Assembly (NCBI GenBank): GCA_016934395.1
Contig: JAFGSZ010000030.1
Span: 4,089-68,088 of the forward strand
Source: Bacteroidales bacterium
Lineage (GTDB): Bacteria > Bacteroidota > Bacteroidia > Bacteroidales > UBA10428
DNA length: 64,000 nt
Direction of reading: 5' to 3'
Shown one piece after another: positions 26,152 to 60,485 of the stretch. Made by a program: the position numbers and the translations under genes. The first letter of the stretch is position 1, and every line of letters begins with the position of its first letter. The notes below the pieces were generated by a model. It searched no databases. It saw only the letters and a list, made by a program, of their open reading frames with translations, and was not told the origin of the DNA.

Positions 26152-26712
26152 TTGAAAATATACATCAAAAATATGGTTTGTATACGCTGCCAGATGGTAG
26201 TGAAGGCCGAACTGGAGAAATTCGGCCTGCATTATAGTGATGTAAAATTAGGAGAAGCAACTATTTTTGAGGATTTACAACCGGAACAATTGGATCAATT
26301 GGATAAGGCTTTAAGAAAATCAGGATTGCAGGTAATGGATGATAAAAAAAGTGTTCTGGTGGAGAAAATTAAAAGTGCTATTATAGAATTAGTACACTAT
26401 ACTGAGGAACAAATTAGGGTGAACCTTTCTGATTACCTGAGCGAAAAACTTAATCATGATTATACCTATCTCGCTAATCTTTTTTCAGAAATTAAAGGCA
26501 TAACCATCGAAAAATATTACCTCACCCATAAAATAGAAAAAGTAAAAGAACTTATTGTCTACGATGAGTTAAATTTGACCGAAATAGCATACAAAATGCA
26601 CTATAGCAGTGTTGCACATCTGTCAAATCAATTTAAAAAATTTACCGGACTTACCCCTTCTCATTTTAAGCAACTCAAAAATAAAAGGCGTGGTACCCTT
26701 AATGATGTGTGA
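26152..26712 (+). CDS. HMA-like (MxCxxC) domain fused to an AraC-family HTH regulator (paralog 1)
   Basis: The N-terminus MKIYIKNMVCIRC aligns with MKLYIKNMVCNRC of the ATG-started paralog at 48969-49559, which supports the TTG start. C-terminal AraC HTH (MHYSSVAHLSNQFKKFTGLTPSHF). Confidence 0.85.
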   Translation: MKIYIKNMVCIRCQMVVKAELEKFGLHYSDVKLGEATIFEDLQPEQLDQLDKALRKSGLQVMDDKKSVLVEKIKSAIIELVHYTEEQIRVNLSDYLSEKLNHDYTYLANLFSEIKGITIEKYYLTHKIEKVKELIVYDELNLTEIAYKMHYSSVAHLSNQFKKFTGLTPSHFKQLKNKRRGTLNDV

Positions 26713-26772
26713 ATTATGTAAATATTATCAGGAATTTTGTAACACATCATCCGCTTGGTATCACGAATTTTA
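26705..26772 (+). promoter_or_regulatory. Composite stress-island promoter copy P1 (direct repeats + -7 box)
   Basis: ATGTGTGAATTATGTAAATATTATCAGGAATTTTGTAAC, 21-nt spacer, GAATTTTA. The TGA inside the first repeat (26710-26712) is the stop codon of the HMA-AraC gene. Next gene: radical SAM, ATG 182 nt after the box. Confidence 0.75.
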
Positions 26773-26954
26773 TATGATCATTAATTAAACAGTTTTAAGC
26801 AGGCATATTTCGAAATAATAAAATTTTATTTCGAGTTATTATTGAAAATCCTGCATCTCATTTCCCCCACTTTTTTACCAAATACCACAGATAATTTAAT
26901 TCTGATAATTAATGACTCAGTTACCAGGAGTAGTTTAATTCAAAAAAAATTACG

Positions 26955-28442
26955 ATGAAAATATTATTAATTTACCCGCAGTGCCCGGATTCTTTTTGGA
27001 GTTTCAAACATGCCTTAAAATTCATCTCGAAAAAGGCAGCTGTTCCGCCACTTGGATTAATAACCGTTTCGGCGATGCTCCCGTCAACATGGCAGAAAAA
27101 ACTGGTAGACATGAATATTTCTACACTTCAAACAAATGATATCGAATGGGCTGATTTTGTATTTATAAGTGCCATGTACATTCAAAAGGAGTCGGTGAAT
27201 AAAATAATAGCAGCATGTTTAAAGCTCGGTGTAAAGATTGTTGCCGGGGGTCCTCTTTTTACCCAGGAATATAAAAACTACCCTCAAATTGATCATTTTA
27301 TATTAAATGAAGCCGAGATTACCTTACCCTTGTTTTTGAAAGATTTAGATTCCGGGCATCCAAAAAAACTTTACAAAACCAGCGAATTTGCAGATCTTTC
27401 TTTGACACCTGTTCCTGATTACTACTTGTTACAACAGAAGAAATACGCCTTTATGAATATACAGATTGGGCGTGGATGCCCCTATTCATGCGATTTTTGT
27501 GAGATAACGTCACTTTTGGGCCACAAAGTCCGGATGAAAAATACCAGTCAAATTATAGATGAGCTTGACACATTATATGCCCTTAACTGGCGCGGGCCGG
27601 TTTCTATTGTGGATGATAATTTTATTGGCAACAAAAAAGAAATTAAATATGGCCTGCTTCCTGCAATTAAAAAATGGATGCAAATTCATAAGTTTCCCTT
27701 TATATTTAATATTCAAAGTTCAATTAACCTGGCCGATGATGAAGAATTAATGTTTTTAATGGTGGAAACGGGATTTACTTCTACATTTATTGGTATTGAA
27801 ACACCTGTGGAGGAGGCGCTTTACGAATGCAATAAAGTTCAGAATAAAAACCGCGACCTGTTGCAATGTGTTAGAAAAATACAACAAACCGGAATACAGG
27901 TATCAGGCGGATTTATTGTGGGTTTCGACAGCGATACTCCGGGTGTTTTTCAGCGACAGATCGATTTTATACAAAAAAGCGGGATTGTTTCTGCCATGGT
28001 AGGCTTATTAAATGCCCCAAAAAATACCCGGTTGTATAACCGGTTAGCAGCAGAAAAAAGATTAACAATTGAAGCCTCAGGAAATAATACCGATTTGTCC
28101 ATGAATTTTATTCCAAAAATGAACTACAATGAACTAATTGCCGGTTACAAAAAAATCATTTATAATATATATGCAACCAAGCCATACTATAAGAGATTAC
28201 GGCAGTTGCTATTAAACTACAACCGATTATATAAAAGACAATCAAGAATTAACTTGTCGCTTCTTGGTGCTTTTTTTAAATCTGTCTATATCATCGGCAT
28301 ACGGAACAGAGGCAGGGGTGAATATTGGAAATTAATGATTTGGACTTTATTTAGAAGGCCCGGATTAATGATAGATGCGATTACCTTTACTGTTTACGGA
28401 TACCATTTCAGAACAATATACGGTTTGGCAAATATGCCCTGA
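26955..28442 (+). CDS. B12-binding-domain radical SAM protein (DUF4070-type C-terminus)
   Basis: The N-terminus MKILLIYPQCPDSFWSF...PPLGL is typical of the B12-binding class. CPYSCDFC is a CxxxCxxC cluster motif. Confidence 0.9.
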   Translation: MKILLIYPQCPDSFWSFKHALKFISKKAAVPPLGLITVSAMLPSTWQKKLVDMNISTLQTNDIEWADFVFISAMYIQKESVNKIIAACLKLGVKIVAGGPLFTQEYKNYPQIDHFILNEAEITLPLFLKDLDSGHPKKLYKTSEFADLSLTPVPDYYLLQQKKYAFMNIQIGRGCPYSCDFCEITSLLGHKVRMKNTSQIIDELDTLYALNWRGPVSIVDDNFIGNKKEIKYGLLPAIKKWMQIHKFPFIFNIQSSINLADDEELMFLMVETGFTSTFIGIETPVEEALYECNKVQNKNRDLLQCVRKIQQTGIQVSGGFIVGFDSDTPGVFQRQIDFIQKSGIVSAMVGLLNAPKNTRLYNRLAAEKRLTIEASGNNTDLSMNFIPKMNYNELIAGYKKIIYNIYATKPYYKRLRQLLLNYNRLYKRQSRINLSLLGAFFKSVYIIGIRNRGRGEYWKLMIWTLFRRPGLMIDAITFTVYGYHFRTIYGLANMP

Positions 28443-28443
28443 A

Positions 28444-28511
28444 ATGTGAGAATGATGTAAGTAATATGTTTAATTGTATAACACATCCCTTATTCAACAG
28501 CAGTACCTTTA
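28444..28511 (+). promoter_or_regulatory. Composite stress-island promoter copy P2
   Basis: ATGTGAGAATGATGTAAGTAATATGTTTAATTGTATAAC, 21-nt spacer, TACCTTTA. The cupin ATG lies 26 nt after the box. Confidence 0.7.
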
Positions 28512-28537
28512 TTGTTCTTATTGTTATAGTATAACAC

Positions 28538-28888
28538 ATGCAAACGGCTGAAATTGAAAAATCGAAAACGCATATTATGATCGAAATAATCGAATATGTT
28601 CCTAATTCGGTTGTCACTAAAACTATAATCAGAAAAACAACCGGAAATATAAGTGTTGTTGCCATTGATACCGGAGAAATGGTGGCTGAGAAGATTTCTC
28701 CTTTTGATACCTTCATTCAAATCATTGAAGGTAAAGCAGACGTAATAATCGATAAAAAATCGAATAAACTTCAAACTGGCGAAGCCATTATAATACCTGC
28801 CCACACATCCAATTCAGTAAGAGCCGATGAACGGTTCAAAATGATTTCCACTATTATTAAAAGCGGTTATGAAGAGGGTTTAATATAA
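28538..28888 (+). CDS. Cupin-domain protein
   Basis: 116 aa. FIQIIEGKADVIID...GEAIIIPAHTSNSV is a cupin beta-barrel pattern. Confidence 0.75.
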   Translation: MQTAEIEKSKTHIMIEIIEYVPNSVVTKTIIRKTTGNISVVAIDTGEMVAEKISPFDTFIQIIEGKADVIIDKKSNKLQTGEAIIIPAHTSNSVRADERFKMISTIIKSGYEEGLI

Positions 28889-28934
28889 AACTGGGAGTTA
28901 AAAACGGGAATAGTTATTTCTAATACATAATAAA

Positions 28935-29063
28935 ATGTCAAAAGAAAAAGAAGGTAAAGAAAAGAATAAAGCAAATAAAAAAATACCGCTAAAAAACCTG
29001 AAAGAAAAAAGGGCTGCAAAAGCGGCCAAACGAGCTGTGAAAAATAATGAAAGTAAAATATAG
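28935..29063 (+). CDS. Possible 42-aa lysine-rich peptide (MSKEKEGKEKNKANKKIPLKNLKEKRAAKAAKRAVKNNESKI)
   Basis: My own translation; too short for the track. Low complexity and no homology evidence. Listed only because it sits between the cupin and the GT cluster. Confidence 0.25.
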   Translation: MSKEKEGKEKNKANKKIPLKNLKEKRAAKAAKRAVKNNESKI

Positions 29064-29181
29064 GTTGTAATAGGGCACTTATTTTTCTGTATGCTTTGTT
29101 TTCAATAGAAGAATCCTATTCTGAAAGGTATACTTTTTTATTTGTTCTAAATATTAACATGAAAAACCTAAAATATTCCAA

Positions 29182-37680: not shown

Positions 37681-37866
37681 CTAAAGTTTTGCTATTATTT
37701 CCTGCATTTCTTGTTTTGTTTTGTGAAGTTTATACTCTATCATTCTCAACATTTTTTCTTCTTTACCCTTTTCATATTGTAAATCGGATTCTGTTAATTG
37801 AGGATATTTTTTTCTGAGCCTGGTTTGCAGTTCAGTTATGTTTTGGTAGCTAAAAATTGAGTCCAT
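37681..37866 (-). CDS. CsbD-like small stress protein
   Basis: 61 aa. ...LTESDLQYEKGKEEKMLRMIEYKLHKTKQEMQEIIAKL parallels the clearer CsbD paralog at 60173-60358. Confidence 0.7.
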   Translation of the reverse strand: MDSIFSYQNITELQTRLRKKYPQLTESDLQYEKGKEEKMLRMIEYKLHKTKQEMQEIIAKL

Positions 37867-37933: not shown

Positions 37934-38095
37934 TCATTTCTTTGATAATTGTTTACCAAATATTATCCTGACGAGAATAATGAATCCTGCTACACCAAGA
38001 AGAATATGGACCATACCGGAAGCATTAAAGCTTAAAAAAATAATTGCCCATATTACAATAAGTAACCCGGCAATAATGTACAGTGAATTTTTCAT
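37934..38095 (-). CDS. lmo0937-family small membrane protein (53 aa)
   Basis: My translation: MKNSLYIIAGLLIVIWAIIFLSFNASGMVHILLGVAGFIILVRIIFGKQLSKK. Two TM helices with the IH.LL core. Too short for the track. 49 nt downstream of promoter copy P3. Confidence 0.7.
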   Translation of the reverse strand: MKNSLYIIAGLLIVIWAIIFLSFNASGMVHILLGVAGFIILVRIIFGKQLSKK

Positions 38096-38317: not shown

Positions 38318-38482
38318 TTAATGTATATTATTAAATAATTGATTGTTAAAAATCAGGTTAAGAAGAATGAGTATTGCAGCTGCGAGCAGCAAATGTATCA
38401 ATGATGATGCATTAAAACCCCAGAAAAAAATACCCCAGATAAGGATTAGTATACCGGCAATCATATATAAAATTATTTTCAT
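38318..38482 (-). CDS. lmo0937-family small membrane protein (54 aa), tandem paralog
   Basis: My translation: MKIILYMIAGILILIWGIFFWGFNASSLIHLLLAAAILILLNLIFNNQLFNNIH. 47 nt downstream of promoter copy P4. Confidence 0.7.
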   Translation of the reverse strand: MKIILYMIAGILILIWGIFFWGFNASSLIHLLLAAAILILLNLIFNNQLFNNIH

Positions 38483-38962: not shown

Positions 38963-40546
38963 ATGGAAAAGAAAATATATTTAAAAATTGTCATCGGGAT
39001 AATGACCCTTATCCTGCTGATAAAATTTTTAACAATAGTCTTTGTTGGACCATGGGTTAGGGGTAAAATACAGTCAGCCCTGAATGAAAAGAATATAGAT
39101 TACAATGTTGAAATTGACAAGGTCCGTATTTTAATGATCTCTTCTGGAATACAACTGGAAAATATAACAATATGCCCAAATCAGGAGCATCAGGGTGACC
39201 GGATTTTAAACGTGAAAATAGCGTCTATAAAATTTAAAGGGATCAGCCTCGTTAAAGTCCTGTTCAAAAATGACGTCAACATCAGTAATGTTACCATTTA
39301 CAATAGTAGTATTATAGGTGAGTTTCCATTTTCACAGGAAGCAAAACCGCTGATAGTTTTGCCTTTGAATATCCGGATAGGTAGCATTCTTTTTGATAAG
39401 ATACATCTGGATATCCAAAACACTGCATCGGCACAATCTTATTTGGTGAATAGAGGCGTTTTGAAAGTATACGGTTTAAAGGTTGATAAACAGGATACCT
39501 TATCCCCTGGCATTATTAAGCAATTTGATATCGAAGCTGAAGAACTCGTTGTGGCTTCCCCTGATAGTATGTATTCATATACGGCCAGTGGTATTTTCTA
39601 TTCTGCAACTACAAAAACCTTAACCGTAAATAGCTTTTATATTCATCCGAATTATACAGGTTATGATTTCACATCACAGTATGATTTTCAAATGAATTGT
39701 ATTGAAGCCGGCTTCAACAACATTTATGTTCACGATTTTAATGCCACAGGTTATCTCACATCCGGGAGCCTGATAAGCTCCTATATCGAAATCGGAAAAA
39801 TGGATATGAACGTTTTTCGGGATAAGCGTAAAGAATTCCGGCATGTCAACAAACCAACATTCCAGGATTTGATTTACAACTACCCTGGTACTGTCCAAAT
39901 TGATTCACTCAGCCTTATAGACGGAAATGTCACTCTTTCCATACATGCCGAGGAGGCAAACGAACCGGGGAGTATCAGCTTTAATAATATCAATTGTAAA
40001 ATATACAAAATAACAAACAGTACTCTTTACAAAACAGAAAAGGCTTTTTTAGAACTTAAGGGAAATGCCCTTTTAATGGGGAAAAGCAAGATGACTATTC
40101 TATTAAAAGGGAAAATATTCGATAGTCATAACACATTTTTTTTGAATGGAACTCTCTCAAGTCTGGAAGCTAAAGAATTGAACCCTATACTTGAGAAGAG
40201 CGCTTTTATATATGCTACATCTGGCAAAATAGATGAAGTGAAATTTAGCTTTATTGCCAATAACGAAAGGGCAACCGGTAAAATAACCATGCTTTATCAT
40301 GGACTGGATATCGCAGTTAAAAATAAACGAACGGCAGATACCACCGCTATTAAAGAGAGATTTATTTCATTGATTGTCAATAGAAAGTTGTCGGATTCAA
40401 ACCCTATTCCTGATGAAGAAGTGAGAGAGGGAATTATAGATTATGAAAGAGATCCCGAAAGATTTCTTTTTAATTATTGCTTCAAATCTATACTTTCAGG
40501 AATTAAATCCACCCTTATTAAAAACCCAAAGAAAAGTAAAAATTAG
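38963..40546 (+). CDS. N-terminally anchored beta-rich protein (AsmA/DUF748-like), function unknown
   Basis: Single N-terminal TM (IVIGIMTLILLIKFLTIVFV), then 500 aa of repetitive beta-strand-like sequence. The family guess is weak. Confidence 0.5.
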   Translation: MEKKIYLKIVIGIMTLILLIKFLTIVFVGPWVRGKIQSALNEKNIDYNVEIDKVRILMISSGIQLENITICPNQEHQGDRILNVKIASIKFKGISLVKVLFKNDVNISNVTIYNSSIIGEFPFSQEAKPLIVLPLNIRIGSILFDKIHLDIQNTASAQSYLVNRGVLKVYGLKVDKQDTLSPGIIKQFDIEAEELVVASPDSMYSYTASGIFYSATTKTLTVNSFYIHPNYTGYDFTSQYDFQMNCIEAGFNNIYVHDFNATGYLTSGSLISSYIEIGKMDMNVFRDKRKEFRHVNKPTFQDLIYNYPGTVQIDSLSLIDGNVTLSIHAEEANEPGSISFNNINCKIYKITNSTLYKTEKAFLELKGNALLMGKSKMTILLKGKIFDSHNTFFLNGTLSSLEAKELNPILEKSAFIYATSGKIDEVKFSFIANNERATGKITMLYHGLDIAVKNKRTADTTAIKERFISLIVNRKLSDSNPIPDEEVREGIIDYERDPERFLFNYCFKSILSGIKSTLIKNPKKSKN

Positions 40547-44538: not shown

Positions 44539-47466
44539 CTATGATATATTTTTAGTGATCATAATTATTTCTTCGGGTATTTTTAAACTGTTAAGCACTA
44601 TATTTACGAACCATTCAACAACCAGCACATTTCCTCCGGCTGCTATTACCTTTATTTTAATCTTGTTGTCCGGAATTTCGTGCAGCATCTTATTTAAATC
44701 TTTTTCAGTCTTTTTTTGCACCTGTACCGGAATAAACATCTGAATAAAATTTTGATCTACAGCATCCTCAAGTTTATTGCCGAAAAATTTTTCAGCTTCG
44801 GAATTAAATGCCAGTATTTTCCAATTGGTTGATAATTTAATAAAAACAGCCGGGGAAAAACTAAAGAGCATGCGATTTATAAGCTCTGATTCGTACAATT
44901 TTACTTCTACCTGCTTAAGATCGGAGATGTTAATAAACGTGATAACCAGCCCGTTTATCCTGTCATCGAACGTGCGGTAAGGCATAATACGAATGGAAAA
45001 CCATCGCCCGTCTTTGGCCGGAATGGCTTTTTGAGTAAATACGAGTGTATCTAATACTTCGAGGGCATCCTGGGCCAATTCGGGGTATATAAGTTCAGAA
45101 ACCAGATCGGTTAATGGCCGTCCTATATCGCTTTTTATAAGTTTAAAAATTTTCGTTGCCATGTTAGTATAGCGACGGATATTTAATTCTTTGTCGAGAA
45201 ACAATGTAGCAATATCGGTGGCATTGAGCAGGTTTTTCATATCATTGTTCACCCGCGAAAAATCATCTACCTTCGATTGCAGTTCGGCATTTACAGTTTG
45301 AAGCTCTTCATTAAGGCTTTGCATTTCTTCTTTTGAACTTGTCAGTTCTTCGTTGGTAGATTGTAATTCTTCATTGGTAGATTGTAATTCTTCGTTTGTG
45401 GATTTTAATTCTTCCTGGGATGTCTGCATTTCCTCAACCGTGTTTTGCATTTCTTCGCGTAAATCCTGCAACTCTTTTTCCAACTCCAATTGTCTGTCAC
45501 CACTGGAAGCTTTTATATCTTTTTTTGTAGCCGGTTTGATGTTGATAATTTCTGGTACATCAGTAAAAATTATCATTACTGTACCATATAATTGTTCTGG
45601 TTTATCAATCCATTGAATATTTACATTTAAAGATTGTGTACCTCCGTTTGTGCCGACTTTGATATTGGAAAGGACCACGGTATCTTTTTTCAAAATAGCT
45701 TTGCGGAAAGCGATTGGGAATTCGTTACGCAAACCATCGCGCAGCATGGCGAAAATATTCATATTGGCTTTACCAACAGCCGGCTCCAGGTATTTTCCCG
45801 TGCGTCCGCTAACGTAAAGGATATCGCCATTTTCGTTTACCAGAACGCCGGATGGCGAAAAATGCTGCAATAATAATTGATCGGCAAGCGATTGAATATT
45901 AGGGGTTGATTTTGCAGGCATTTGTTTCTCAATATTGGTAGGTTTATCTCGGGAAAATGAAGTAGGAAAATCGAATAATTCAGGCATCAGGGTAGTAATA
46001 GAACGCTTGAAAATTTTCAATTTGTTATCCACGGCGTTAAAAAGATGGCTTTGCGTTCCAAGTGTTTCAGAGCTACCTAGCACAACAATCCCATCCGGGT
46101 TAGTGCTGTAGTAAAACAAGCCAAGCAATTTTTTTTGAAGTTCTGCATCCATATATATAAGGAGATTACGGCACGAAATGATATCGATCTTTGTAAAGGG
46201 CGGATGTAAAATGATGTTGTGTTGCGCAAATACCACCATTTCCCTTATTTCACTCGATACTTGATAGCCATTCTCTGTTGAAACAAAAAACCGGTCGAGG
46301 CGCTCGGTAGATACATCGGCAGCAATATTTGAAGGGAAAACACCTTTTCTGGCTGTTTCAATAGCTTCGTTGTCGAGATCGGTAGCAAAAATCTGTAACG
46401 ATATTCCTCTTGGTGGATTTATTTTTCCAATAACTTCCTTAAAGGTGATGGCCAATGAATATGCCTCTTCACCTGTTGAACACGCTGGTACCCATGCCCG
46501 CATTATAGAACCGGCTTCCGTATTCCTGATAATAGTTGGAATTACAGTATCTTTTAACTTTTCCCACACAGTGGGATCGCGAAAGAAATTAGTTACGCCA
46601 ATCATTAATTCCTTAAAAAGAATATCCACTTCCTTTTGATTTTTCTGCAAAAAGTTAACATAAGAAGTTATTTTATCAATTTTATGGACACCCATGCGCC
46701 TTTCGATGCGGCGGTATACTGTACTTTTTTTATACAACGAAAAGTCGTTGCCTGTATAAGTGCGTAACAAAATAATAATTTTTTCGAGGGCGCTTTTGTC
46801 TTTAATTTCGATTTCCAGGCTAGATGCAGCAATAGGGGCATTATTTTTAATGAATTCTATAAGTTTAACAGGCAAATCGTTGGCCGGGGCAACAATGTCC
46901 ATCAATACAGAATCTATGGCATTGCGCGGCATACTGTCGAATTTTGCCGAGGCAGGGTCCTGTGCCATAACTATTCCCCCTTTTTCTTTTAAGGCCCTGA
47001 GCCCCAAACTGCCATCGGAGCCCATACCCGAAAGAATGATACCAATTCCAAGATCCCTCAGGTCATCGGCGAGCGAGCGCAGGAAAAAATCAATTGGAAG
47101 GCGCAGCCCTCTTGCTTCTATTGGGTCAAAAAGATGAAGCACACCCTTTAATATTGACATGCTCTTATTTGGCGGAATTACATACACACAGTTTGGTTTA
47201 ACAACCATGCGGTCCTTTACCAGGAAAACTTTCATGGCAGAAAACCGCTGAAGCAACTCCGGCAACATGCCTTTTTGGGTAGGGTCCAGGTGTTGGATCA
47301 CAATATAGGCCAGGCCACTATTTTTAGGTACATTACCCAGAAATAGCTCCAGGGCTTCCAGGCCTCCGGCCGATGCGCCAATTCCGACTATTGGAAAAGG
47401 GTTAGCGGTTGCACTTGAAGTCTTCTTTTGTAATGATATTTTTGATTTTGGTTTTTTGGTTTTCAC
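44539..47466 (-). CDS. CheB methylesterase - CheR methyltransferase - coiled coil - PAS fusion protein
   Basis: CheB catalytic domain (GASAGGLEAL...QHLDP), CheR SAM-binding region (RAWVPACSTGEEAYSLA), heptad coiled coil EELQSTNEELQSTNEEL, C-terminal PAS domains. No REC and no HK domain. Confidence 0.9.
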   Translation of the reverse strand: MKTKKPKSKISLQKKTSSATANPFPIVGIGASAGGLEALELFLGNVPKNSGLAYIVIQHLDPTQKGMLPELLQRFSAMKVFLVKDRMVVKPNCVYVIPPNKSMSILKGVLHLFDPIEARGLRLPIDFFLRSLADDLRDLGIGIILSGMGSDGSLGLRALKEKGGIVMAQDPASAKFDSMPRNAIDSVLMDIVAPANDLPVKLIEFIKNNAPIAASSLEIEIKDKSALEKIIILLRTYTGNDFSLYKKSTVYRRIERRMGVHKIDKITSYVNFLQKNQKEVDILFKELMIGVTNFFRDPTVWEKLKDTVIPTIIRNTEAGSIMRAWVPACSTGEEAYSLAITFKEVIGKINPPRGISLQIFATDLDNEAIETARKGVFPSNIAADVSTERLDRFFVSTENGYQVSSEIREMVVFAQHNIILHPPFTKIDIISCRNLLIYMDAELQKKLLGLFYYSTNPDGIVVLGSSETLGTQSHLFNAVDNKLKIFKRSITTLMPELFDFPTSFSRDKPTNIEKQMPAKSTPNIQSLADQLLLQHFSPSGVLVNENGDILYVSGRTGKYLEPAVGKANMNIFAMLRDGLRNEFPIAFRKAILKKDTVVLSNIKVGTNGGTQSLNVNIQWIDKPEQLYGTVMIIFTDVPEIINIKPATKKDIKASSGDRQLELEKELQDLREEMQNTVEEMQTSQEELKSTNEELQSTNEELQSTNEELTSSKEEMQSLNEELQTVNAELQSKVDDFSRVNNDMKNLLNATDIATLFLDKELNIRRYTNMATKIFKLIKSDIGRPLTDLVSELIYPELAQDALEVLDTLVFTQKAIPAKDGRWFSIRIMPYRTFDDRINGLVITFINISDLKQVEVKLYESELINRMLFSFSPAVFIKLSTNWKILAFNSEAEKFFGNKLEDAVDQNFIQMFIPVQVQKKTEKDLNKMLHEIPDNKIKIKVIAAGGNVLVVEWFVNIVLNSLKIPEEIIMITKNIS
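45346..45408 (-). repeat. 3 x 21-bp perfect/near-perfect tandem repeat encoding the STNEELQ heptads
   Basis: ttcttcgttggtagattgtaa / ttcttcattggtagattgtaa / ttcttcgtttgtggattttaa, read directly from the plus strand. Confidence 0.85.
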
Positions 47467-47657: not shown

Positions 47658-47882
47658 TTACCATTTCCTTCTGGAGACTACCAAACCGAGCAGAAAACCG
47701 GCCCCTAAACTGATCAGAATCAGGGCCCAATTCCAATGGGTAATGCCAGTCCATCGGCCTCCATGCATTATTCCTCTGGTCCATGGCCCACCGCCCAATA
47801 GTAGAAAAGCCACTATTATAATTGCAATAGCGACAACATAGAGAATTTTTCTGTTTTTTATTGTGATTCTTCTTTTTTTCAT
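47658..47882 (-). CDS. Small membrane protein (74 aa)
   Basis: The track ORF starts at 47924, which would lie inside promoter P7. The internal start MKKRRITIKNRKILYVVAIAIIIVAF (ATG 47882) lies 24 nt after the -7 box. Confidence 0.55.
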   Translation of the reverse strand: MKKRRITIKNRKILYVVAIAIIIVAFLLLGGGPWTRGIMHGGRWTGITHWNWALILISLGAGFLLGLVVSRRKW

Positions 47883-47906
47883 AATTTTCTTCTTATCTGA
47901 TAAAAT

Positions 47907-47974
47907 TAAAATTAGATAATACAAGTGTATTTTGTATTACATAACTTTTTATAAGAGTTACATCATTCACACAT
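47907..47974 (-). promoter_or_regulatory. Composite stress-island promoter copy P7
   Basis: Gene-oriented: ATGTGTGAATGATGTAACTCTTATAAAAAGTTATGTAAT, 21-nt spacer, TAATTTTA. It lies upstream of the small membrane protein and the CheB-CheR-PAS / PAS genes. Confidence 0.8.
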
Positions 47975-48087: not shown

Positions 48088-48972
48088 TTAAATATAATGC
48101 GGTAATGTAAACTTAATTTCGCATCCTTTGCCTGGTGCGCTTTCTACAAGTATATTTCCATTATGTATATCAACAAATTCCTTACAGAGCAACAATCCTA
48201 ATCCCGTACCTTTTTCATTATTGGTGCCTGCAGTTGAACGTAACTTTTGTATATTAAAAAGTTCTTTTTGGTCTTGAGATGAAATTCCAATGCCGTTGTC
48301 TTTTACTGCTATCTCAACAAATGGTTTGATTTCTATTGCACTTACAATAATTTTACCGCCAGTATTTGTAAATTTTATAGCGTTGCTGATCAAATTGCGA
48401 AGTATCGTTTTTACCATCTGAAGGTCGGCGGTTACATTTAAACCGGGCGCAACGGAATGTTCCAGTGTTATTTGTTTTTGTATGGCTGAAGTATTGTGGT
48501 TCATAAATTCGGCTTCCAACAATTCATATAAATTAATCTTAACCGGATTAAAGTTTCGCTCTTTATTTTGTGAAATAGTCCAATCTAAAAGGTCATCAAG
48601 AAGTTTTAATGTTCTCTTTGCAGAATCTGCAGCGAGGTTAATATAATTTTCGATTGTATCTATACTTTTATCATGCAGGTTCTCCTTTACTATATCCATA
48701 AGGTTTAATATAGAAATAAAAGGGCTTCTTAAATCATGTGCTATGATAGAAATAAATTTTGTATTTGTTGCAATAACATCAATTAATTCCTTTGATTGTT
48801 TTTCAACAAGATTTTCCAAATAGAAATTGAATTTATTTATTTCCTGCAAATTCAATTTTTTAATATTTCCCGTTGCACTGCCGGTATCTGAAATAACATT
48901 TGATTTATCAGGTGATTTTGAATTTCTGTGTTTACTTTTAGCAGTATTTTTAACGGATTTTAATTTTGTCAT
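48088..48972 (-). CDS. Soluble histidine kinase (HisKA + HATPase_c, no sensor domain)
   Basis: IIAHDLRSPF H-box, N-box LISNAIKFT, G-boxes DNGIGIS and GTGLGLLLCKEFV. The start overlaps the AraC stop in an ATGA. Confidence 0.9.
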   Translation of the reverse strand: MTKLKSVKNTAKSKHRNSKSPDKSNVISDTGSATGNIKKLNLQEINKFNFYLENLVEKQSKELIDVIATNTKFISIIAHDLRSPFISILNLMDIVKENLHDKSIDTIENYINLAADSAKRTLKLLDDLLDWTISQNKERNFNPVKINLYELLEAEFMNHNTSAIQKQITLEHSVAPGLNVTADLQMVKTILRNLISNAIKFTNTGGKIIVSAIEIKPFVEIAVKDNGIGISSQDQKELFNIQKLRSTAGTNNEKGTGLGLLLCKEFVDIHNGNILVESAPGKGCEIKFTLPHYI

Positions 48973-49559
48973 AACGGATGTTTATTTGTTGGTAACGTTT
49001 TTATGGTTTCCGGAATGCTGACCCTGGTGTGCCGAAGTTGCCTGAAATGCAAAGGCGTTAGCCCCGTTAGGCTTTTAAACTGGCTGGATAATTGTGCAGC
49101 ACTGCTGTAATGCATTTTAAGTGCAATTTTTTCAATATCAAGATCTTCGTACACGAGTAATTCTTTTACCCGCTCAATTTTATATTTTATAATGTATTTT
49201 TCAATGGTAATGCCTTCTATTTCTGCAAACAACGTGTTCAGGGTAATAAAGTTATCATTTACTTTCAAGCTAATGTAATCCGCATAGCTTGTTTTTAAAT
49301 CTTCATCTGAATAATTTTCCAAATCAACAACCGCCCTTTTTAATTTCTCTATAAGATCATTTTTTTTCTCTTCTATCAGTTCAAAACCAGATTGCTGCAA
49401 TGCATTATATAACTGGGTGCGTTGTACGGGGGTTATTTTATTATTTGTAATTACTTCCCCTAACTCCACGGTAATATATTGAATACCTAGTTTGTTCAGT
49501 TCGGTCCTTACGATTGTTTTGCAACGATTGCAAACCATATTTTTAATATAGAGTTTCAT
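48969..49559 (-). CDS. HMA-like (MxCxxC) domain fused to an AraC-family HTH regulator (paralog 2)
   Basis: MKLYIKNMVCNRCKTIV..., with a C-terminal AraC HTH (MHYSSAAQLSSQFKSLTGLTPLHF). Same architecture as 26152-26712. Confidence 0.85.
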   Translation of the reverse strand: MKLYIKNMVCNRCKTIVRTELNKLGIQYITVELGEVITNNKITPVQRTQLYNALQQSGFELIEEKKNDLIEKLKRAVVDLENYSDEDLKTSYADYISLKVNDNFITLNTLFAEIEGITIEKYIIKYKIERVKELLVYEDLDIEKIALKMHYSSAAQLSSQFKSLTGLTPLHFRQLRHTRVSIPETIKTLPTNKHPL

Positions 49560-49899
49560 GTTTTTTGATTTATTAGATCATACTGATGAAGGATATTAGT
49601 TTAACTCAGTTCTAGTAACAAGTCCTTCCAAAGTTTTTTTCAAGTTATAGCTGAAGCCTTTCAGGTATTTTTTCCTTTAGATATAGTTACACCATGTAAT
49701 TTTTCCGGATAGATGGTATATTGCGGCTTAAACCCTAAATTAAATTACATTTCGTATTTTGCACAAAACAGGGTCATGTTTATTGAGGCAATGTTTTTAC
49801 TATTTTAATGTTAACTATTCTTAAACAAACCTGAAATTAAAATTAACTATCGATAAAAAGTATTTTGAATAACATTTATATTATTGAATCACTTTTAAG

Positions 49900-50075: not shown

Positions 50076-50624
50076 TTATTTACAATCTTGATGGGATAGG
50101 GCCTTAATACCCCGGTTTGGCTTAGCTTCTCTGTTCAACTGGTCAATCAATTTCCTTCTTGCAAGGTAAATTCTGCTCTTTACAGTTCCAAGATTTATAT
50201 CAAGTATTTCAGCAATCTCTTTATACTTAAAACCCTCGTGGTGCATTTTGAAAGGGTGTTTTAAATTGTCATCCAGTGTTTCAATTGTTTTTTCAAGTTC
50301 TTTTGAAATAAATATAGATGAAGGATCATCAGCTCCCGTTGCATGTGGAGGATTTTGGCAATATCCTTCCTTCTTCTGATTATTATAAGCATTTTGAAGT
50401 ATTGTGCTGCGATAATGGTTAATAAATGTATTTTTCATAATGGTTAGTGTCCATGCTTTAAAATTAGACTCGTATACGAACTTATTGCAATTTTTCAAAG
50501 CTTTCAGTAAGGTCTCCTGAACCAGGTCTTTTGCATCATCCTTATCAGCAGTAAGATGGTAAGCAAATCTCATCAGACTATCCTGGAGGTTTATGAGTTC
50601 ATTGCTAAATTCTGAAGCTGTCAT
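50076..50624 (-). CDS. ECF-type sigma-70 family RNA polymerase sigma factor
   Basis: Region 2 (DAKDLVQETLLKALKN...FKAWTLTIMKNTFINHYR) and region 4 (GFKYKEIAEILDINLGTVKSRIYLARRKL). No co-transcribed anti-sigma candidate. Confidence 0.85.
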   Translation of the reverse strand: MTASEFSNELINLQDSLMRFAYHLTADKDDAKDLVQETLLKALKNCNKFVYESNFKAWTLTIMKNTFINHYRSTILQNAYNNQKKEGYCQNPPHATGADDPSSIFISKELEKTIETLDDNLKHPFKMHHEGFKYKEIAEILDINLGTVKSRIYLARRKLIDQLNREAKPNRGIKALSHQDCK

Positions 50625-50830: not shown

Positions 50831-52384
50831 TTAAATCAAATAATCTGCTATTAATTCTACCAGGGTGTTCTGTTGAACAGGTTTTGAAATATACACATCA
50901 AATCCTGACTGCAGGCCTTGCACTTTTTGAGGGTCGGGGGCAAAGGCTGATTGAGCAATAACCGGTAATTTAGACCGAATGTGTTTTATACGCTGTGTGG
51001 CTTCATAACCATCCATAACCGGCATTCTGATATCCATTAATACCAACGAGATATCAGGATGTTTTTTTACATGCTCCACAGCTTCTCGTCCGTTCAGGGC
51101 ATGAACTATCTTAATTTTTGTTGAAGAGAGCAATTTTTCAATATAATCAAAATTAATTATCTCATCCTCCGCGATAAGAATGGTTTTTTTATCCCAGTTA
51201 AATTTTCGACCAGGTGTTTTCTTTAACGAAATGCCGGGATTTTTAATTTTATTTATATAAGGAATAGTAAAGGTGAAGGTTGAACCTCTTCCGGGCTCTG
51301 AGTCAACAGTTATGGTACCGCCCAGTTTTTCAACCAGGGCTTTTGAAATTGATAATCCCAGTCCGGTTCCACCATATTCCCGGGTATCTGCTGTTTCTGC
51401 CTGTTTGAAAGGTTGAAAAATAAGCGCATGGTTTTCCGGGGCGATGCCGATGCCGGTATCTTTAACATAGAACTCCAGAAAATTCCTTCTTGTTTTATAT
51501 CCGAATTCAATTTTGCCTTTTCTGGTGAATTTTATGGCATTATTCAATAAGTTGCAAAGTATCTGTTTAATCCTGTATTCATCTGTTTTAATCTGAAAAG
51601 TCTCATTGTCAGCATAATAAGAATAATATAACTGGATTTTATTAGCTTCAACTATTTTTTTATAGGTTTCAAATAATTGTTTTAATAAGTTATTGATATT
51701 AACCAATTCAGAATTTATATTTAATTGGCCTGTTTCGATTTTCGAAATATCTAAAATGTCAGTTATAACAGATAATAACTGCTGGCTATTGGTATTAATT
51801 ATCTGAACATAATCGGCAAGTTTTTCTTTAGTTAATCCGGGTTGCAGGAGTAGCTTCGAAAATCCGGTAATTGCATTCATCGGGGTCCTTATTTCATGAT
51901 TTATATTGGCTAAAAAAGCGGTTTTCAGTTTATCAGATTCTTTTGCTTTAACATTTGCCAACATCAAATCTTCATTCATTTTTTGAATAAGTTTTGAACT
52001 TTCTGCCAGTTTCCTTTTCAATTCGTTAATGTCCGGGTCAGATTTTTCTTTATTTCTGAATAAACTAATCTCCCAAAGTTTTTTGCCGATAATTTTTTCC
52101 AGGGGATATTTCAGGATTTTAATTAAAGACGGGTTAGCATCAACAATTTTTTCGGTTATGGGATCAATAATTAAAATACCTTCTTTTGCGGTATTAAGAA
52201 GTTTCCGTTGCTGCAACCCTGAAAATGTAATAGACTTTATCACTTTTTTTTCTTCCTTTTCCTCTATTCGATTTCTAGAATAAGGGATTTCAAAGGGTTG
52301 TCCTGATAGTCTTTTCTTGACCATGGCATTACAAATTTTTATAACCTTGTTATGATAACTAATGCCTTTTGAGTATGTTCCCAA
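50831..52384 (-). CDS. Hybrid sensor histidine kinase (PAS - HisKA - HATPase_c - REC)
   Basis: PAS (EGILIIDPITEKIVDANP), H-box NINHEIRTPMNAI, GGTGLGLSISKALVE, C-terminal REC (ILIAEDEIIN...LMDIRMPVMDG). Confidence 0.9.
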   Translation of the reverse strand: MGTYSKGISYHNKVIKICNAMVKKRLSGQPFEIPYSRNRIEEKEEKKVIKSITFSGLQQRKLLNTAKEGILIIDPITEKIVDANPSLIKILKYPLEKIIGKKLWEISLFRNKEKSDPDINELKRKLAESSKLIQKMNEDLMLANVKAKESDKLKTAFLANINHEIRTPMNAITGFSKLLLQPGLTKEKLADYVQIINTNSQQLLSVITDILDISKIETGQLNINSELVNINNLLKQLFETYKKIVEANKIQLYYSYYADNETFQIKTDEYRIKQILCNLLNNAIKFTRKGKIEFGYKTRRNFLEFYVKDTGIGIAPENHALIFQPFKQAETADTREYGGTGLGLSISKALVEKLGGTITVDSEPGRGSTFTFTIPYINKIKNPGISLKKTPGRKFNWDKKTILIAEDEIINFDYIEKLLSSTKIKIVHALNGREAVEHVKKHPDISLVLMDIRMPVMDGYEATQRIKHIRSKLPVIAQSAFAPDPQKVQGLQSGFDVYISKPVQQNTLVELIADYLI

Positions 52385-52728: not shown

Positions 52729-53829
52729 TTAATGATCTTGTTTTGTTAATCGGTATTTAAATTTTGTACTTTGAGGCATGGTATCACCCAATAAAAAGCC
52801 CCACGGTTTTAAAGCTTCGATATGGTCGAATATAAGTTTAACAATTGCAGTAAGCGGTATAGATAAGAACATACCCGGAATGCCCCACAAAGAGCCAAAT
52901 GCAATTACTACAATGATTGTAATAAGGGCGTTGATTTTTACTTTTGAGGCCACTAATTTTGGAACAATATAGTTATTGTCAATGAATTGGATGAATACAT
53001 ACATTGCAAGGATTAACAAAACAAACCAGGGGGATGTTTTCGAAACTAAAGCGATCATCATTGGCAATGATGCGGCAATTATAGCTCCAATATAAGGAAT
53101 AAGGTTGAGCAGGGCACCTATTATACCAAGAATTACAGCGTATTCTATTCCCAATATCAAAAGGCCAACAGAATACAGTGTGGCAATTATTGATGTTTCT
53201 AATAACAATCCGAGCAGATAGCGTTGTATTAACGATTTTATCTGGGCAATTATTTCACTCACTTCATTACGATTATTTTTACCAAATAACCTGCGGAAAA
53301 ATTCAATCAATATAGGTTGGTAAAATAGTATCATAAAAATATACACAGGAATTAAAAATAATAATACCACTCCGCTGCCAACAGAAACAAGTGTTTGGCC
53401 GATCTCGGCGGTCCTTGTGCTAATGAATCCTTCTTTTGTTTTAATAAGCCATGCATCGATCTTTAACGGGCTTATCTCAAAATAACCAGAAACCCAGTCC
53501 GCAGCCTGATTTAAGATTTCAGTAAATCTATCAATCAACACTGGCCAAGACTCGCTAAATCGGATTGCCCGCGAAAACATTAAAGTACCCAAGGTGCCAA
53601 AAATTAATATAGCAAGGGCCAGCGTAATTATAATTGCCACAACCCTGTTTATTTTTAAGCGGACTAAAAAATTCACAACCGGATGTAGAACGATGGCTAT
53701 GATAATCGCGAATATTATTGGAACTACTATACCCTGGGCGATATACAACATTGTAAGAAGTGCGAATAAACCAATTAAAAAAATGGTTGCCTTTGCGTAA
53801 AATGGTAATCTTATTTCCTTTGTTATCAC
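52729..53829 (-). CDS. AI-2E (PerM/YhhT) family transporter
   Basis: About eight TM helices. The C-terminal FGSLWGIPGMFLSIPLTAIVK motif is typical of the family. Confidence 0.85.
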   Translation of the reverse strand: MITKEIRLPFYAKATIFLIGLFALLTMLYIAQGIVVPIIFAIIIAIVLHPVVNFLVRLKINRVVAIIITLALAILIFGTLGTLMFSRAIRFSESWPVLIDRFTEILNQAADWVSGYFEISPLKIDAWLIKTKEGFISTRTAEIGQTLVSVGSGVVLLFLIPVYIFMILFYQPILIEFFRRLFGKNNRNEVSEIIAQIKSLIQRYLLGLLLETSIIATLYSVGLLILGIEYAVILGIIGALLNLIPYIGAIIAASLPMMIALVSKTSPWFVLLILAMYVFIQFIDNNYIVPKLVASKVKINALITIIVVIAFGSLWGIPGMFLSIPLTAIVKLIFDHIEALKPWGFLLGDTMPQSTKFKYRLTKQDH

Positions 53830-55073: not shown

Positions 55074-55352
55074 TTAACCCTTCGCAGTATTTACATCTTT
55101 CTCAGGTTCTTTTGATTTACCCTTGTTTGCCTCCTTAGCTTCTTTTGTATCTTCTTTAGCCTGTTCAAATTTCCCGGTAATGTTGTCAAGAAATTCATTG
55201 AATTTTTCTTTTATTGTATCTGTGTAGTCTTCTCCCTTTTTAGATATTTTTTTCCGCGTAACCGAACCTTTTTCAGGGGCAAATAAAATCCCTAATAATG
55301 CTCCGGCTGCTGCGCCGGCCAGTAATCCTAATAATACTTTTCCCGAGCTCAT
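55074..55352 (-). CDS. YtxH-domain stress protein
   Basis: MSSGKVLLGLLAGAAAGALLGILFAPEKGSVTRKK is the canonical YtxH N-terminus, followed by a charged helix. Confidence 0.8.
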   Translation of the reverse strand: MSSGKVLLGLLAGAAAGALLGILFAPEKGSVTRKKISKKGEDYTDTIKEKFNEFLDNITGKFEQAKEDTKEAKEANKGKSKEPEKDVNTAKG

Positions 55353-55739: not shown

Positions 55740-56069
55740 TTATAGTAAAATGATTATCAGGATAATAATAAGAATTAGTGTGCCGGTGCCAATATAAATA
55801 TATCCGCTATCTTTGCGCACATTTTCTTTAATCATCCTTAGTTCTTTTCTCAGCTCGCGCTTTTCTTTTAACGTCAGGTTTGTTTTATCCATGTCGCGTA
55901 TTTCTTCAACACGTCTGGTTAAGTGACTTATCTCTTCTTCAGATAATTTATTTTCCGTTTTTACGGGAACAGCAGGCTTATCCGATACCGGATCAGACTT
56001 AGTGGCAAATGCTGTTGATGCACTCAACATGAAGAACATTAAACCTACAAAAATCATAATTTTTTTCAT
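55740..56069 (-). CDS. Secreted/anchored charged protein (109 aa)
   Basis: Signal peptide, a KE-rich helix and a C-terminal TM (LILIIILIIILL). First gene after promoter P11. Confidence 0.55.
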   Translation of the reverse strand: MKKIMIFVGLMFFMLSASTAFATKSDPVSDKPAVPVKTENKLSEEEISHLTRRVEEIRDMDKTNLTLKEKRELRKELRMIKENVRKDSGYIYIGTGTLILIIILIIILL

Positions 56070-56104
56070 TTTCAGATGTATTAATTTAATATTATTTTAT
56101 GAAC

Positions 56105-59281: not shown

Positions 59282-59455
59282 AATATTCCAAACTAGGTTA
59301 GCATTACATTTCTGAAGAAAAATTACTTATCAAATAAAACCGGCAGGGTATATCGAAACATGCTTTTTCAGCACGCAATACCCGGGCCGGCTAAAGTTTA
59401 TTAATTATGGTATAATGAATATTCAGTGAGATCTATAAGGTATAAGTTAAGGTTT

Positions 59456-59611
59456 TTAAAAAACCTTTCTTCCCTGAATAACTCTGATTATTACTGCAAT
59501 AATTGCAACGATAAGCAGAATGTGTATAATACCTCCGGCACTGTAACCGATATATCCTATTGCCCATGCGATAATTAAGATAACTGCTACTATATAAAGT
59601 AGATTTACCAT
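59456..59611 (-). CDS. lmo0937-family small membrane protein (51 aa)
   Basis: My translation: MVNLLYIVAVILIIAWAIGYIGYSAGGIIHILLIVAIIAVIIRVIQGRKVF. Last gene of the CsbD operon. Confidence 0.7.
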   Translation of the reverse strand: MVNLLYIVAVILIIAWAIGYIGYSAGGIIHILLIVAIIAVIIRVIQGRKVF

Positions 59612-59623
59612 AGTATTTATTTT

Positions 59624-60076
59624 TTAGTTAACATTTTCAATGGTGAAATTTTTTAAAGCTTTACCCAATTCGTCCATATCATTACTAAATTCGGTTTTAA
59701 ATATTTCCCAGTTGTCTTTACCTTCTTCCTTAAATTCATCAAGTTTATTATTCAAATCTTTGTTCTTCTGTTCTAATTCCGCCAATTTCTTTTCGTATAT
59801 GGCTTTGTTTTTCTTTTTCTCGTTTGTTATTTTTGCTTTTAATTCAGCAATACTTTTATCATTAGCAATGATTTTTGCTTTTGATTCATTTTTGAATTGT
59901 TGAATAGAATTTTTCAATGCCTGGTTTAGCTCATGGTTAGCTTCTACCATGTTATCCTTTGCATCCTCCACGTTATCAAGGGCATTTTCTACATTTTTAT
60001 TTGATGACTTGCAACCGGTTAACATTGTACCAGCAATAAATACTGTCATCGTCAGGATAAAAATTACTTTCTTCAT
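59624..60076 (-). CDS. Coiled-coil lipoprotein (150 aa)
   Basis: Lipobox LTGCKSS, then KE/N-rich heptads. Confidence 0.65.
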   Translation of the reverse strand: MKKVIFILTMTVFIAGTMLTGCKSSNKNVENALDNVEDAKDNMVEANHELNQALKNSIQQFKNESKAKIIANDKSIAELKAKITNEKKKNKAIYEKKLAELEQKNKDLNNKLDEFKEEGKDNWEIFKTEFSNDMDELGKALKNFTIENVN

Positions 60077-60172
60077 ATAGTATGTTTTTTGTTTTAAATT
60101 TTTTAGTTATTTATTTAAAAACACCTTTTAGCAAAGGTTCTGCCAAACAGTGTTTTTATAAAAGGCAGATGG

Positions 60173-60358
60173 TTAAAGCGCTGCAATAATCTTACGCAAT
60201 TCTTCTTTTGTTTTTCCAAGCCTGATTTGAAGTTTTCCAAACATTTCCTCTTCCTTTCCTTCTTCAAACATCAGGTCATTGTCTGTTAAGAAAGCAAATT
60301 TCTGTTTGAGTTTACCTTTCTGCTCATTCCAGTTTCCTTTTACTACTGTTGTGTTCAT
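60173..60358 (-). CDS. CsbD-family general stress protein
   Basis: VKGNWNEQKGKLKQKFAFLTDNDLMFEEGKEEEMFGKLQIRLGKTKEEL matches the CsbD pattern (KG.w...kGk.k...g.ltddDl....Gk...l.Gk.Q...G). Confidence 0.8.
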   Translation of the reverse strand: MNTTVVKGNWNEQKGKLKQKFAFLTDNDLMFEEGKEEEMFGKLQIRLGKTKEELRKIIAAL

Positions 60359-60417
60359 TTTTATTAAATATTAATACCCGCGGCTGGCGGTACAGATGTG
60401 AATAAAATCTCACAATA

Positions 60418-60485
60418 CAAAGGTGAGACCTTTAAACCGGGAAACTGTTACATAACTTTGAAAATAAGTTACATCATTCACACAT
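60418..60485 (-). promoter_or_regulatory. Composite stress-island promoter copy P12
   Basis: Gene-oriented: ATGTGTGAATGATGTAACTTATTTTCAAAGTTATGTAAC, 21-nt spacer, CACCTTTG. The CsbD ATG lies 59 nt after the box. Confidence 0.8.

Follow-up and report, generated by a model that had tools for sequence, protein, structure and literature searches.

Among described promoters, those closest in layout to the element reported here are served by activators of the AraC/XylS type. XylS sites span approximately positions -70 to -56 and -49 to -35, and AraC at araI1-I2 has the same two-direct-repeat layout as XylS at the Pm promoter of the TOL plasmid. Each of the two direct repeats recognized by XylS carries a box A and a box B, and the pair is bound by two monomers (PMC5481539). 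In this study we analyzed a 64,000-nucleotide stretch of DNA from a Bacteroidales bacterium (GenBank assembly GCA_016934395.1, contig JAFGSZ010000030.1, positions 4,089 to 68,088 of the forward strand), hereafter called the window, which holds 12 copies of a 68-bp cassette made of two direct repeats followed by a box of the kind used by the housekeeping sigma-A of Bacteroidota. As at Pm and araI1-araI2, the repeats are asymmetric direct sites of about 15 to 20 bp that lie roughly two helical turns apart, with a 21-bp period and two sub-boxes per repeat about one helical turn apart; relative to the predicted start the repeats would fall at -69 to -55 and -48 to -34, which nearly equals the XylS sites and would bring the proximal one up to or over the -35 region. 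Judged from sequence, the cassette is likely to be the operator-promoter of a family of small activators that join an HMA-fold N-terminal domain to an AraC-type DNA-binding domain (HMA-AraC proteins) and that work with sigma-A.

The differences from the XylS and AraC systems are as instructive as the likeness. The cassette uses Bacteroidota sigma-A, with its -7 element TAnnTTTG; the candidate regulator is a protein of 186 amino acids, in which a 65-amino-acid HMA-like domain replaces the cupin/ligand-binding and dimerization domain of about 170 amino acids; and the predicted binding would serve a multi-operon, stress-type regulon found across a phylum rather than one catabolic operon. In the small size of the AraC-type protein, its structurally matching DNA-binding domain, the dispersed stress regulon, and an asymmetric site that measures about 20 bp and lies near -35, the system also resembles MarA, SoxS, and Rob with their class II marbox promoters. 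MarA and SoxS, however, bind one marbox as monomers and lack a sensor domain; the cassette has a pair of repeats in fixed register, and its candidate regulator has an additional N-terminal domain.

A search of the whole window for the consensus ATGTGTGAATnATGTAAC with at most three mismatches returned the 12 cassettes and nothing else, against 0.33 on average, and never more than 2, in dinucleotide-preserving shuffles. An earlier note on this DNA, made from the sequence alone, had placed twelve copies at these coordinates, and this was borne out. The shorter unit GAATnATGTAAC matched 19 times (1.9 expected), with pairs spaced 21 bp apart. Parsing each copy gave the same succession throughout: an 18-mer, 9 nt, a 12-mer of the form (G/T/A)A(A/G)TT(A/G)T(G/A)TAA(C/T), a spacer, and an 8-mer box, nAnnTTT(A/G). 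The repeat offset is 21 bp in all 12 copies and the spacer is 21 nt in all but P4 (20 nt; total length, 67 bp), exactly as the note had read them. A position weight matrix built from the 12 copies scored them at 45 to 62 bits and found nothing above 8 bits in the rest of the 64 kb. The first 26 kb of the window contains no cassette; all 12 lie within a 34-kb island, three on the plus strand and nine on the minus strand, and the note's claim that every copy points at the nearest gene also held. The copies and their predicted targets, annotated with Pfam and NCBIfam, are as follows (on the minus strand the cassette starts at its higher coordinate).

P1, 26705 to 26772, plus strand: 5' bases overlap the stop codon (26710 to 26712) of HMA-AraC gene A; target, a B12-binding radical-SAM/DUF4070 gene (26955 to 28442).
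P2, 28444 to 28511, plus strand: target, a cupin gene (28538 to 28888) and a cluster of a GT4-type 749-amino-acid glycosyltransferase, GH130, and GT4 extending to 33545.
P3, 38145 to 38212, minus strand: targets, a DUF5670 small membrane protein (37934 to 38095), a 61-amino-acid CsbD-like protein (37681 to 37866), and an SPFH fragment; probably also the PIG-L/GT4/GH100-like genes down to 34029.
P4, 38530 to 38596, minus strand: the sole copy with a 20-nt spacer; target, a 54-amino-acid membrane protein of the lmo0937 family (38318 to 38482).
P5, 38689 to 38756, plus strand: the copy with the weakest distal unit, back-to-back with P4; aimed at a 527-amino-acid membrane protein (38963 to 40546).
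P6, 43386 to 43453, minus strand: targets, an OmpA-family protein (42819 to 43346) and a 408-amino-acid protein (41588 to 42814).
P7, 47907 to 47974, minus strand: target, a small membrane protein encoded within 47658 to 47924.
P8, 49900 to 49967, minus strand: target, HMA-AraC gene B and the overlapping histidine kinase gene, with a leader of about 340 nt.
P9, 50668 to 50735, minus strand: target, a sigma factor gene of the extracytoplasmic function (ECF) type.
P10, 52582 to 52649, minus strand: target, a PAS-HisKA-HATPase-REC hybrid kinase (50831 to 52384).
P11, 56105 to 56172, minus strand: target, a 109-amino-acid secreted protein (55740 to 56069); probably also YtxH (55074 to 55352), three small genes, and an AI-2E transporter (52729 to 53829).
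P12, 60418 to 60485, minus strand: targets, a CsbD-like gene (60173 to 60358), a 150-amino-acid lipoprotein (59624 to 60076), and an lmo0937-family protein (59456 to 59611).

The note had proposed a search for orthologous motifs in related genomes, and such a search showed that the cassette is widespread. The exact 20-base core TGTGAATnATGTAAn13TTnTGTAA, scanned against one genome per GTDB species, yielded at least 120 loci and at least 150 sites, where about one match would be expected by chance in the 1.2e12 positions covered. Among the matches listed were Bacteroidales, Prolixibacteraceae, Marinilabiliaceae, Lentimicrobiaceae, Paludibacter, Chitinophagaceae, Saprospiraceae, Cytophagaceae/Emticicia, and Flavobacteriaceae; the orders Chitinophagales and Cytophagales are represented. 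All named taxa among these matches belong to the Bacteroidota, except for one metagenome-assembled genome labeled Woesearchaeota, which we take to be mis-binned. The 21-bp repeat register of the window copies is kept throughout the phylum-wide set.

These phylum-wide copies were picked by the upstream core alone, and the downstream part of the cassette is therefore an unbiased read-out. Positions 57 to 64 read (T/C)A(C)CTTTG, with A58 in 130/147 copies, T61 in 143/147, T62 in 144/147, and G64 in 96/147. The box sits 21 nt past the proximal GTAA(C/T) in 143 of the 147, and the near-constancy of T61 in copies chosen by bases far upstream of it indicates that the register is rigid. Conservation is confined to a core of about 40 bp and to the box; the spacer between them is not conserved. 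The box agrees with the Bacteroidota sigma-A -7 element, TAnnTTTG. The note was right in assigning the box to this type, with two small amendments: the first base of the window boxes is T in nine copies, C in two, and G in one, and the A at the end of the box is a local quirk. The companion sigma-A element, TTTG at -33, is absent, as the note had observed in the window; positions 33 to 36 are AACA, the end of the proximal repeat, and this absence fits dependence on an activator.

The sigma-A box TAnnTTTG of flavobacteria occupies -12 to -5 (PMC9723704), which predicts a transcription start (+1) at cassette position 69, 5 nt past the last base of the box. With that start, the distal repeat would occupy approximately -69 to -55 and the proximal repeat -48 to -34, its GTAA(C/T) ending 21 nt before the -7 box, at -34, without a TTTG; a conserved AA lies 5' of the distal repeat, at -73 and -72. 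An ATG-initiated open reading frame of at least 35 amino acids began 15 to 80 nt after position 69 in 119 of 162 sites read forward, compared with 15/162 in the reverse direction and 54/162 at random positions, and the median leader length was 36 nt. In the window, eight of the 12 copies have an ATG 21 to 56 nt past the predicted start; the other four (P1, P5, P8, and P10) have leaders of 179 to 337 nt. The cassettes are almost certainly a family of promoters.

Independent support for the predicted start position comes from an inverted repeat, GTGnn-N6-nnCAC (typically GTGAA-N6-TTCAC), whose first base is position 69 in 23 of 337 sites (loci L021, L031, L059, L073, L094, L104, and L112 among them). 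The window has one example.

Inverted repeat GTGAG-N6-TTCAC, 60398 to 60413, minus strand: begins at the predicted +1 of P12; candidate 5'-terminal RNA hairpin.

The inner pairs are complementary in 21 of the 23, including four double changes, and the variants that preserve pairing are GTGGA/TCCAC, GTGAT/ATCAC, GTGGT/ATCAC, and GTGAG/CTCAC. The repeat probably forms a hairpin at the 5' end of the mRNA, perhaps serving stability, although it may be an operator instead. The folded P12 leader was no more stable than its shuffles (z = -0.6), so the case for a hairpin rests on position and covariation. A second leader element, CTGTnCCGCCAGnnGCGG, with the stem CCGC/GCGG, follows the first hairpin at approximately 60374 to 60392 on the minus strand, upstream of the CsbD-like gene, and is found in the leaders of L083, L107, L119, and L120; it matched no Rfam family, and its fold energy was no better than that of shuffles. 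Searches of the whole window against Rfam at gathering thresholds gave no match, and a permissive scan of P12 and its leader gave only chance-level matches, indicating that neither the cassette nor the leader hairpins belong to a described RNA family.

The proteins proposed to read the cassette are encoded twice in the island, the second time together with a kinase.

HMA-AraC regulator A, 26152 to 26712, plus strand: 186 amino acids, TTG start; N-terminal beta-alpha-beta-beta-alpha-beta domain with C10-x2-C13, followed by an AraC-type double helix-turn-helix.
HMA-AraC regulator B, 48969 to 49559, minus strand: 196 amino acids, 48% identical to A; its coding sequence shares 4 bp with that of the kinase.
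Soluble HisKA-HATPase histidine kinase, 48088 to 48972, minus strand: shares an operon with regulator B, a pairing also seen in L201.

The DNA-binding half of these proteins has the double helix-turn-helix that a cognate regulator of the AraC type should have: the Pfam family HTH_18 was matched with E = 9e-15 for regulator A, and also with 7e-13, and searches of the PDB gave sequence matches to AraC-type domains. In an AlphaFold2 model of regulator A (pLDDT, 84), an N-terminal domain of residues 1 to 62 is joined by a linker helix to a seven-helix AraC DNA-binding domain, for which Foldseek returned MarA, SoxS, AraC, AdpA, and Rob with TM scores of 0.73 to 0.81. The recognition helices lie at about residues 104 to 115 and 154 to 165. 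The N-terminal part, whose modeled secondary structure over residues 2 to 61 is the E-H-E-E-H-E of the HMA-type ferredoxin-like fold, was matched to CopZ, Atx1, Atox1, TTHA1718, and HMA7 (probability, 0.99 to 1.0; TM score, 0.57 to 0.67). In the model, then, the N-terminus is HMA-like in fold, and metal binding by it is putative. The regulators gave no match to the Pfam HMA profile at E <= 1e-3, and the family does not conserve a metal-binding MxCxxC loop; the CopZ profile gave a sub-threshold match to paralogue B only (E of about 1e-3; 19 bits versus a cutoff of 91). Many database models of the regulator (P0012, P0241, and P0244, for example) start at Met8 and have 179 amino acids, omitting beta-strand 1 (window positions 26152 to 26172); the conservation of K2 to N7 and the frequency of TTG starts indicate that the 186-amino-acid form is the correct one.

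The link between these regulators and the cassette was found from both directions. A tblastn search with all window proteins located full-length HMA-AraC orthologues, 55 to 83% identical, in 24 of the 120 motif loci listed. Maribellus comscasis also has close orthologues, QGY46090.1 and QGY46485.1. When the open reading frames of the same 120 loci were clustered without regard to the window, HMA-AraC was the top family (21 loci), followed by a REC-HisKA-HATPase kinase (19), cupin (16), a large glycosyltransferase (13), and YtxH (12), and no other DNA-binding family recurred among them. In the reverse test, 80 metagenome loci were fetched solely by homology to the HMA-AraC alignment (62 to 86% identity). 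A cassette of at least 25 bits was present in 63 of the 80, with 104 sites in 446 kb, while five shuffles of the same DNA and the first 26 kb of the window gave none; many of the loci that lacked a cassette are contigs of 1 to 2 kb.

The placement of the cassette around the regulator genes is also distinctive. In 35 of 82 HMA-AraC genes the cassette begins at the gene end, usually with the stop codon TGA inside ATGTGTGAAT, as at 26705 to 26714. In such cases (L090, L012, L114, L046, L118, and L121 to L158, for example) the stop, in the context D/N-V-TGA, is embedded in the distal repeat, so that the C-terminus of the regulator and its putative binding site share bases. A cassette lies upstream on the same strand in 10 of 77 HMA-AraC genes, at 68 to 427 nt but mostly 90 to 105 nt before the start codon, a position indicative of autoregulation; by its placement, P8 would provide the same for regulator B. 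The note had suggested an AraC/XylS-type activator, with the HMA-AraC proteins as candidates, and that suggestion is supported by the conservation of the cassette in rigid register, its orientation bias, its class II geometry, and this two-way association.

Several observations weigh against an HMA-AraC protein as the activator, or against its simplest form. Association is not proof of recognition: some unlinked factor could be the reader, with the HMA-AraC genes among its frequent targets, in the way that the ECF sigma gene is a target. The regulator is present in only about 20% of the 8-kb motif loci, a proportion expected for a multi-site regulon, though this is no proof of one. Genomes often carry two or three HMA-AraC paralogues (the window, L018, L019, L032, and L061), and any one of these, or a heterodimer of them, may be what binds. 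R12 and C13 are invariant, but C10, a Cys in the A-type orthologues, is replaced by Ser in most members of a diverse set, which makes a simple metal-sensor model less convincing. P1 (GAATTTTA) and P9 (CAATTTTA) have imperfect -7 boxes, and other controls may act in the long leaders of four window copies.

In a rival reading, some other factor binds the repeats and the HMA-AraC genes are simply frequent targets, whether that factor is a LytTR protein, a hybrid of the TPR-kinase-REC-AraC kind, or a protein encoded elsewhere; we regard this as unlikely. LytTR sites, too, consist of direct repeats, spaced about 21 bp and placed upstream of a promoter, and the period alone does not separate AraC from LytTR. 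The window encodes both a LytTR response regulator with a LytS-type kinase (15424 to 17273, minus strand) and a 1,094-amino-acid TPR-HisKA-HATPase-REC-AraC hybrid (19422 to 22706, plus strand), and the recurrence of kinases and a 144-amino-acid receiver protein in the motif loci implies that a phosphorelay is involved somewhere. Both of these window systems lie just outside the island, however, and no cassette occurs near the LytTR operon or at the hybrid gene. The cassette repeats share their period and upstream position with sites of the AgrA, ComE, and AlgR type, but they are longer, with 12 to 18 bp conserved, and reach -35. LytTR homologues were found in 3 of 120 motif loci and in none of the 80 HMA-AraC loci, and LytTR was rejected as the reader for want of such linkage. 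No hybrid family of about 1,000 amino acids recurs in the motif loci, and DNA-binding domains are absent from the kinases and receiver proteins that do recur; hybrid kinases and receivers were thus ruled out by co-occurrence or by domain content. The HMA-AraC proteins are the sole recurrent DNA-binding family, and placement of the site over the stop codon or about 95 nt upstream of the gene is typical of a cognate, autoregulated factor.

The note itself had offered a different reader, a dedicated sigma factor recognizing GTAAC together with the A-ending box.

ECF-type sigma factor, 50076 to 50624, minus strand: no adjacent anti-sigma gene; carries its own cassette, P9.

According to this proposal the sigma factor would read TGTAAC as its -35 element and TAnnTTT as its -10 element and would be autoregulated from P9. 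GTAAC does resemble ECF -35 elements, which have an AAC core, and this likeness counts in its favor. The note's observation that the sigma gene carries its own cassette was confirmed, and it extends to close orthologues in similar islands (L019, L201, and L202), where the cassette lies about 95 to 108 nt upstream and HMA-AraC genes are nearby. No anti-sigma gene adjoins the sigma gene or any homologue examined, which means that its control could be transcriptional. We nevertheless find the proposal quite improbable. ECF-type promoters in flavobacteria carry a CGT -10 element (PMC9723704), and none is conserved 16 to 17 nt past the GTAAC of the cassette, where information does not exceed 0.22 bit at positions 50 to 56; the conserved element is instead the canonical sigma-A TAnnTTTG, mostly G-ending, at 21 nt, a spacing that is sigma-A's rather than the 16 to 17 nt or so of ECF factors. 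The sigma factor would also leave unexplained the better-conserved second repeat at about -60 and the TGTGAAT at about -69, its homologues occur in only 2 of 120 motif loci and 2 of 80 HMA-AraC loci, compared with 24 of 120 for HMA-AraC, and distant homologues in other contexts (L203 and L204) have no cassette. The sigma gene is better regarded as a conserved target of the regulon, possibly forming a second tier. Repression is a further possibility, in which HMA-AraC would bind the repeats mainly as a repressor or anti-activator and the cassettes would be basally active sigma-A promoters kept silent. In Flavobacterium psychrophilum, 103 genes are weakly expressed in every one of 32 conditions, and the block THC0290_1129-1210 accounts for at least 30 of them (PMC9723704, Table S4). 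By annotation, this block resembles the island, with a 179-amino-acid AraC-family protein, a 144-amino-acid receiver, a PH1107-type (GH130-like) glycosidase beside a 778-amino-acid GT1, UspA, an ABC permease and ATPase, and a peptidoglycan-binding-domain protein. Silence in the laboratory is equally expected of an uninduced activator, however; promoters that lack a -33 element should have low basal activity without help; and a site upstream of or abutting -35, rather than over the -7 box or +1, has the geometry of class II activation. We hold repression to be very improbable. The many near-identical intergenic copies within 34 kb might also recall a dispersed repeat of the repetitive extragenic palindromic (REP) or miniature inverted-repeat transposable element (MITE) type, without promoter function. 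The note had said that copies free of orientation or position bias would point that way; the strong forward bias, the fixed distance to the sigma-A box, the conservation of the same sequence across orders before the same gene families, and the absence of terminal inverted repeats, with only the core and box conserved, leave this idea almost no credence.

Under the favored model of an HMA-AraC activator, the cassette would be an activator-dependent promoter for the housekeeping sigma-A: its -7 box, (T/C)AnCTTTG, is good, and a TTTG at -33 is missing. In place of the latter it would offer a strong distal repeat, AATGTGTGAATnATGTAAC, and a weaker proximal one, (A/G)ATTnTGTAA(C/T), 21 bp apart, between about -69 and -34. 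Two HMA-AraC molecules would bind head-to-tail, one double helix-turn-helix domain per repeat, and the ATGT sub-sites of the distal unit, 11 bp apart, would match the two helix-turn-helix motifs of one AraC domain. Bound there, the proximal molecule would touch RNA polymerase at the place where -33 is ordinarily recognized by sigma region 4, a class II arrangement like that of XylS at Pm or AraC at araI1-I2. A signal would be sensed or transmitted probably by the N-terminal HMA-like domain, possibly through redox, metal, or regulated dimerization. The predicted output is a large regulon of the general stress type, comprising CsbD, YtxH, lmo0937/DUF5670, OmpA-like, and Usp proteins, glycosyltransferase/GH130 clusters, an AI-2E transporter, and Mla-like ABC genes, with feedback loops through regulator paralogue B and its kinase, the hybrid kinase, and the ECF sigma factor.

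CsbD, YtxH, lmo0937-family, Usp, and OmpA-like proteins and sugar genes of the compatible-solute type are hallmarks of the general stress regulons of sigma-B, RpoS, and EcfG. Three lmo0937/DUF5670 mini-membrane proteins are encoded downstream of cassettes in the window, and two Usp genes lie within the island. Across loci, the OmpA-like family forms the largest cluster of genes downstream of cassettes, and cupin is the commonest neighbor in other loci (19/120 motif loci and 33/80 HMA-AraC loci); lmo0937 proteins were found in 22 of the 80 HMA-AraC loci. A recurrent target not represented in the window is a secreted protein of 280 to 540 amino acids with repeated segments of the form 'AADFVLFS…G.VTN.G' (L002, L005, L013, L058, L103, and L115), which may be of the ice-binding/DUF3494 type; if so, it would hint at freezing or desiccation stress.

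Other features of the cassettes and of the surrounding DNA were noted. Divergent, back-to-back cassette pairs like P4/P5 (38530 to 38756) recur in L008, L017, L022, L031, and L077, with distal ends about 55 to 150 bp apart. The leader of about 340 nt between P8 and HMA-AraC gene B (49560 to 49899, minus strand) contains no open reading frame, and L201 and L202 have a CsbD-like gene of 60 amino acids at this place; by comparison, a gene seems to have been lost from the P8 leader. The SPFH/Band 7 reading frame downstream of P3 (37270 to 37641, minus strand; 123 amino acids) aligns with no more than positions 1 to 75 of the 176-position profile and is possibly a truncated gene. Inside the island, with no cassette directly upstream, are a 975-amino-acid CheB-CheR fusion with coiled-coil and PAS domains (44539 to 47466, minus strand) and, downstream of it, a 182-amino-acid protein without a family match (43988 to 44536, minus strand). 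A 618-amino-acid protein encoded at 22858 to 24714 on the plus strand has numerous ankyrin repeats together with a domain of the metallo-beta-lactamase fold, which is unusual in a bacterium.

To our knowledge, Bacteroidota lack RpoS and sigma-B. In gene content, kinases, single-domain receivers, and positive feedback on regulators, the system described here is like those of sigma-B (Bacillus and Listeria), RpoS (Escherichia coli), and EcfG/PhyR (Alphaproteobacteria). Those systems switch sigma factors, whereas this one, whose stress role we infer from gene content, appears to keep sigma-A and to rely on a one-component activator. We suggest tentatively, and with slightly less than even confidence, that a general stress or dormancy response common to the phylum has the cassette as its master cis-element. 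In such a response a one-component HMA-AraC activator would recruit sigma-A with no sigma switch; kinases, a single-domain receiver, and an ECF sigma factor would supply feedback or second tiers; and the whole would stay silent in ordinary laboratory conditions.

In the literature outside subscription journals we found nothing on the motif, on a regulator of a general stress response in Bacteroidota, on AraC proteins with an HMA domain, or on CsbD or YtxH in flavobacteria. The PM2 promoter motif of Bacteroides thetaiotaomicron is near-palindromic at -10 and -30 and hence is not the cassette, and none of the F. psychrophilum motifs SM1 to SM6 corresponds to it. The mechanism proposed is of a known kind, AraC/XylS-type activation. 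What appear to be new are the architecture of the regulator, the near-invariance of a 40-bp site across a phylum, and a regulon resembling a general stress response that is run by an activator and not by a sigma switch.

These observations put forward a specific candidate for the regulator together with a clearly delimited promoter layout. Expression tools are few in this phylum, and a promoter that is strong, tightly off, and dependent on a small cognate activator would be useful there as a genetic part. As a searchable marker of about 45 to 60 bits, the cassette should define the regulon in any Bacteroidota genome, and such a regulon would explain the clustering of "hypothetical" small membrane proteins with CsbD, YtxH, and Usp genes. 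It may also explain the silence of the look-alike island of F. psychrophilum in 32 laboratory conditions; if the cassette is present in that block, the regulon would be one that is silent in standard conditions and whose inducing signal is unusual.

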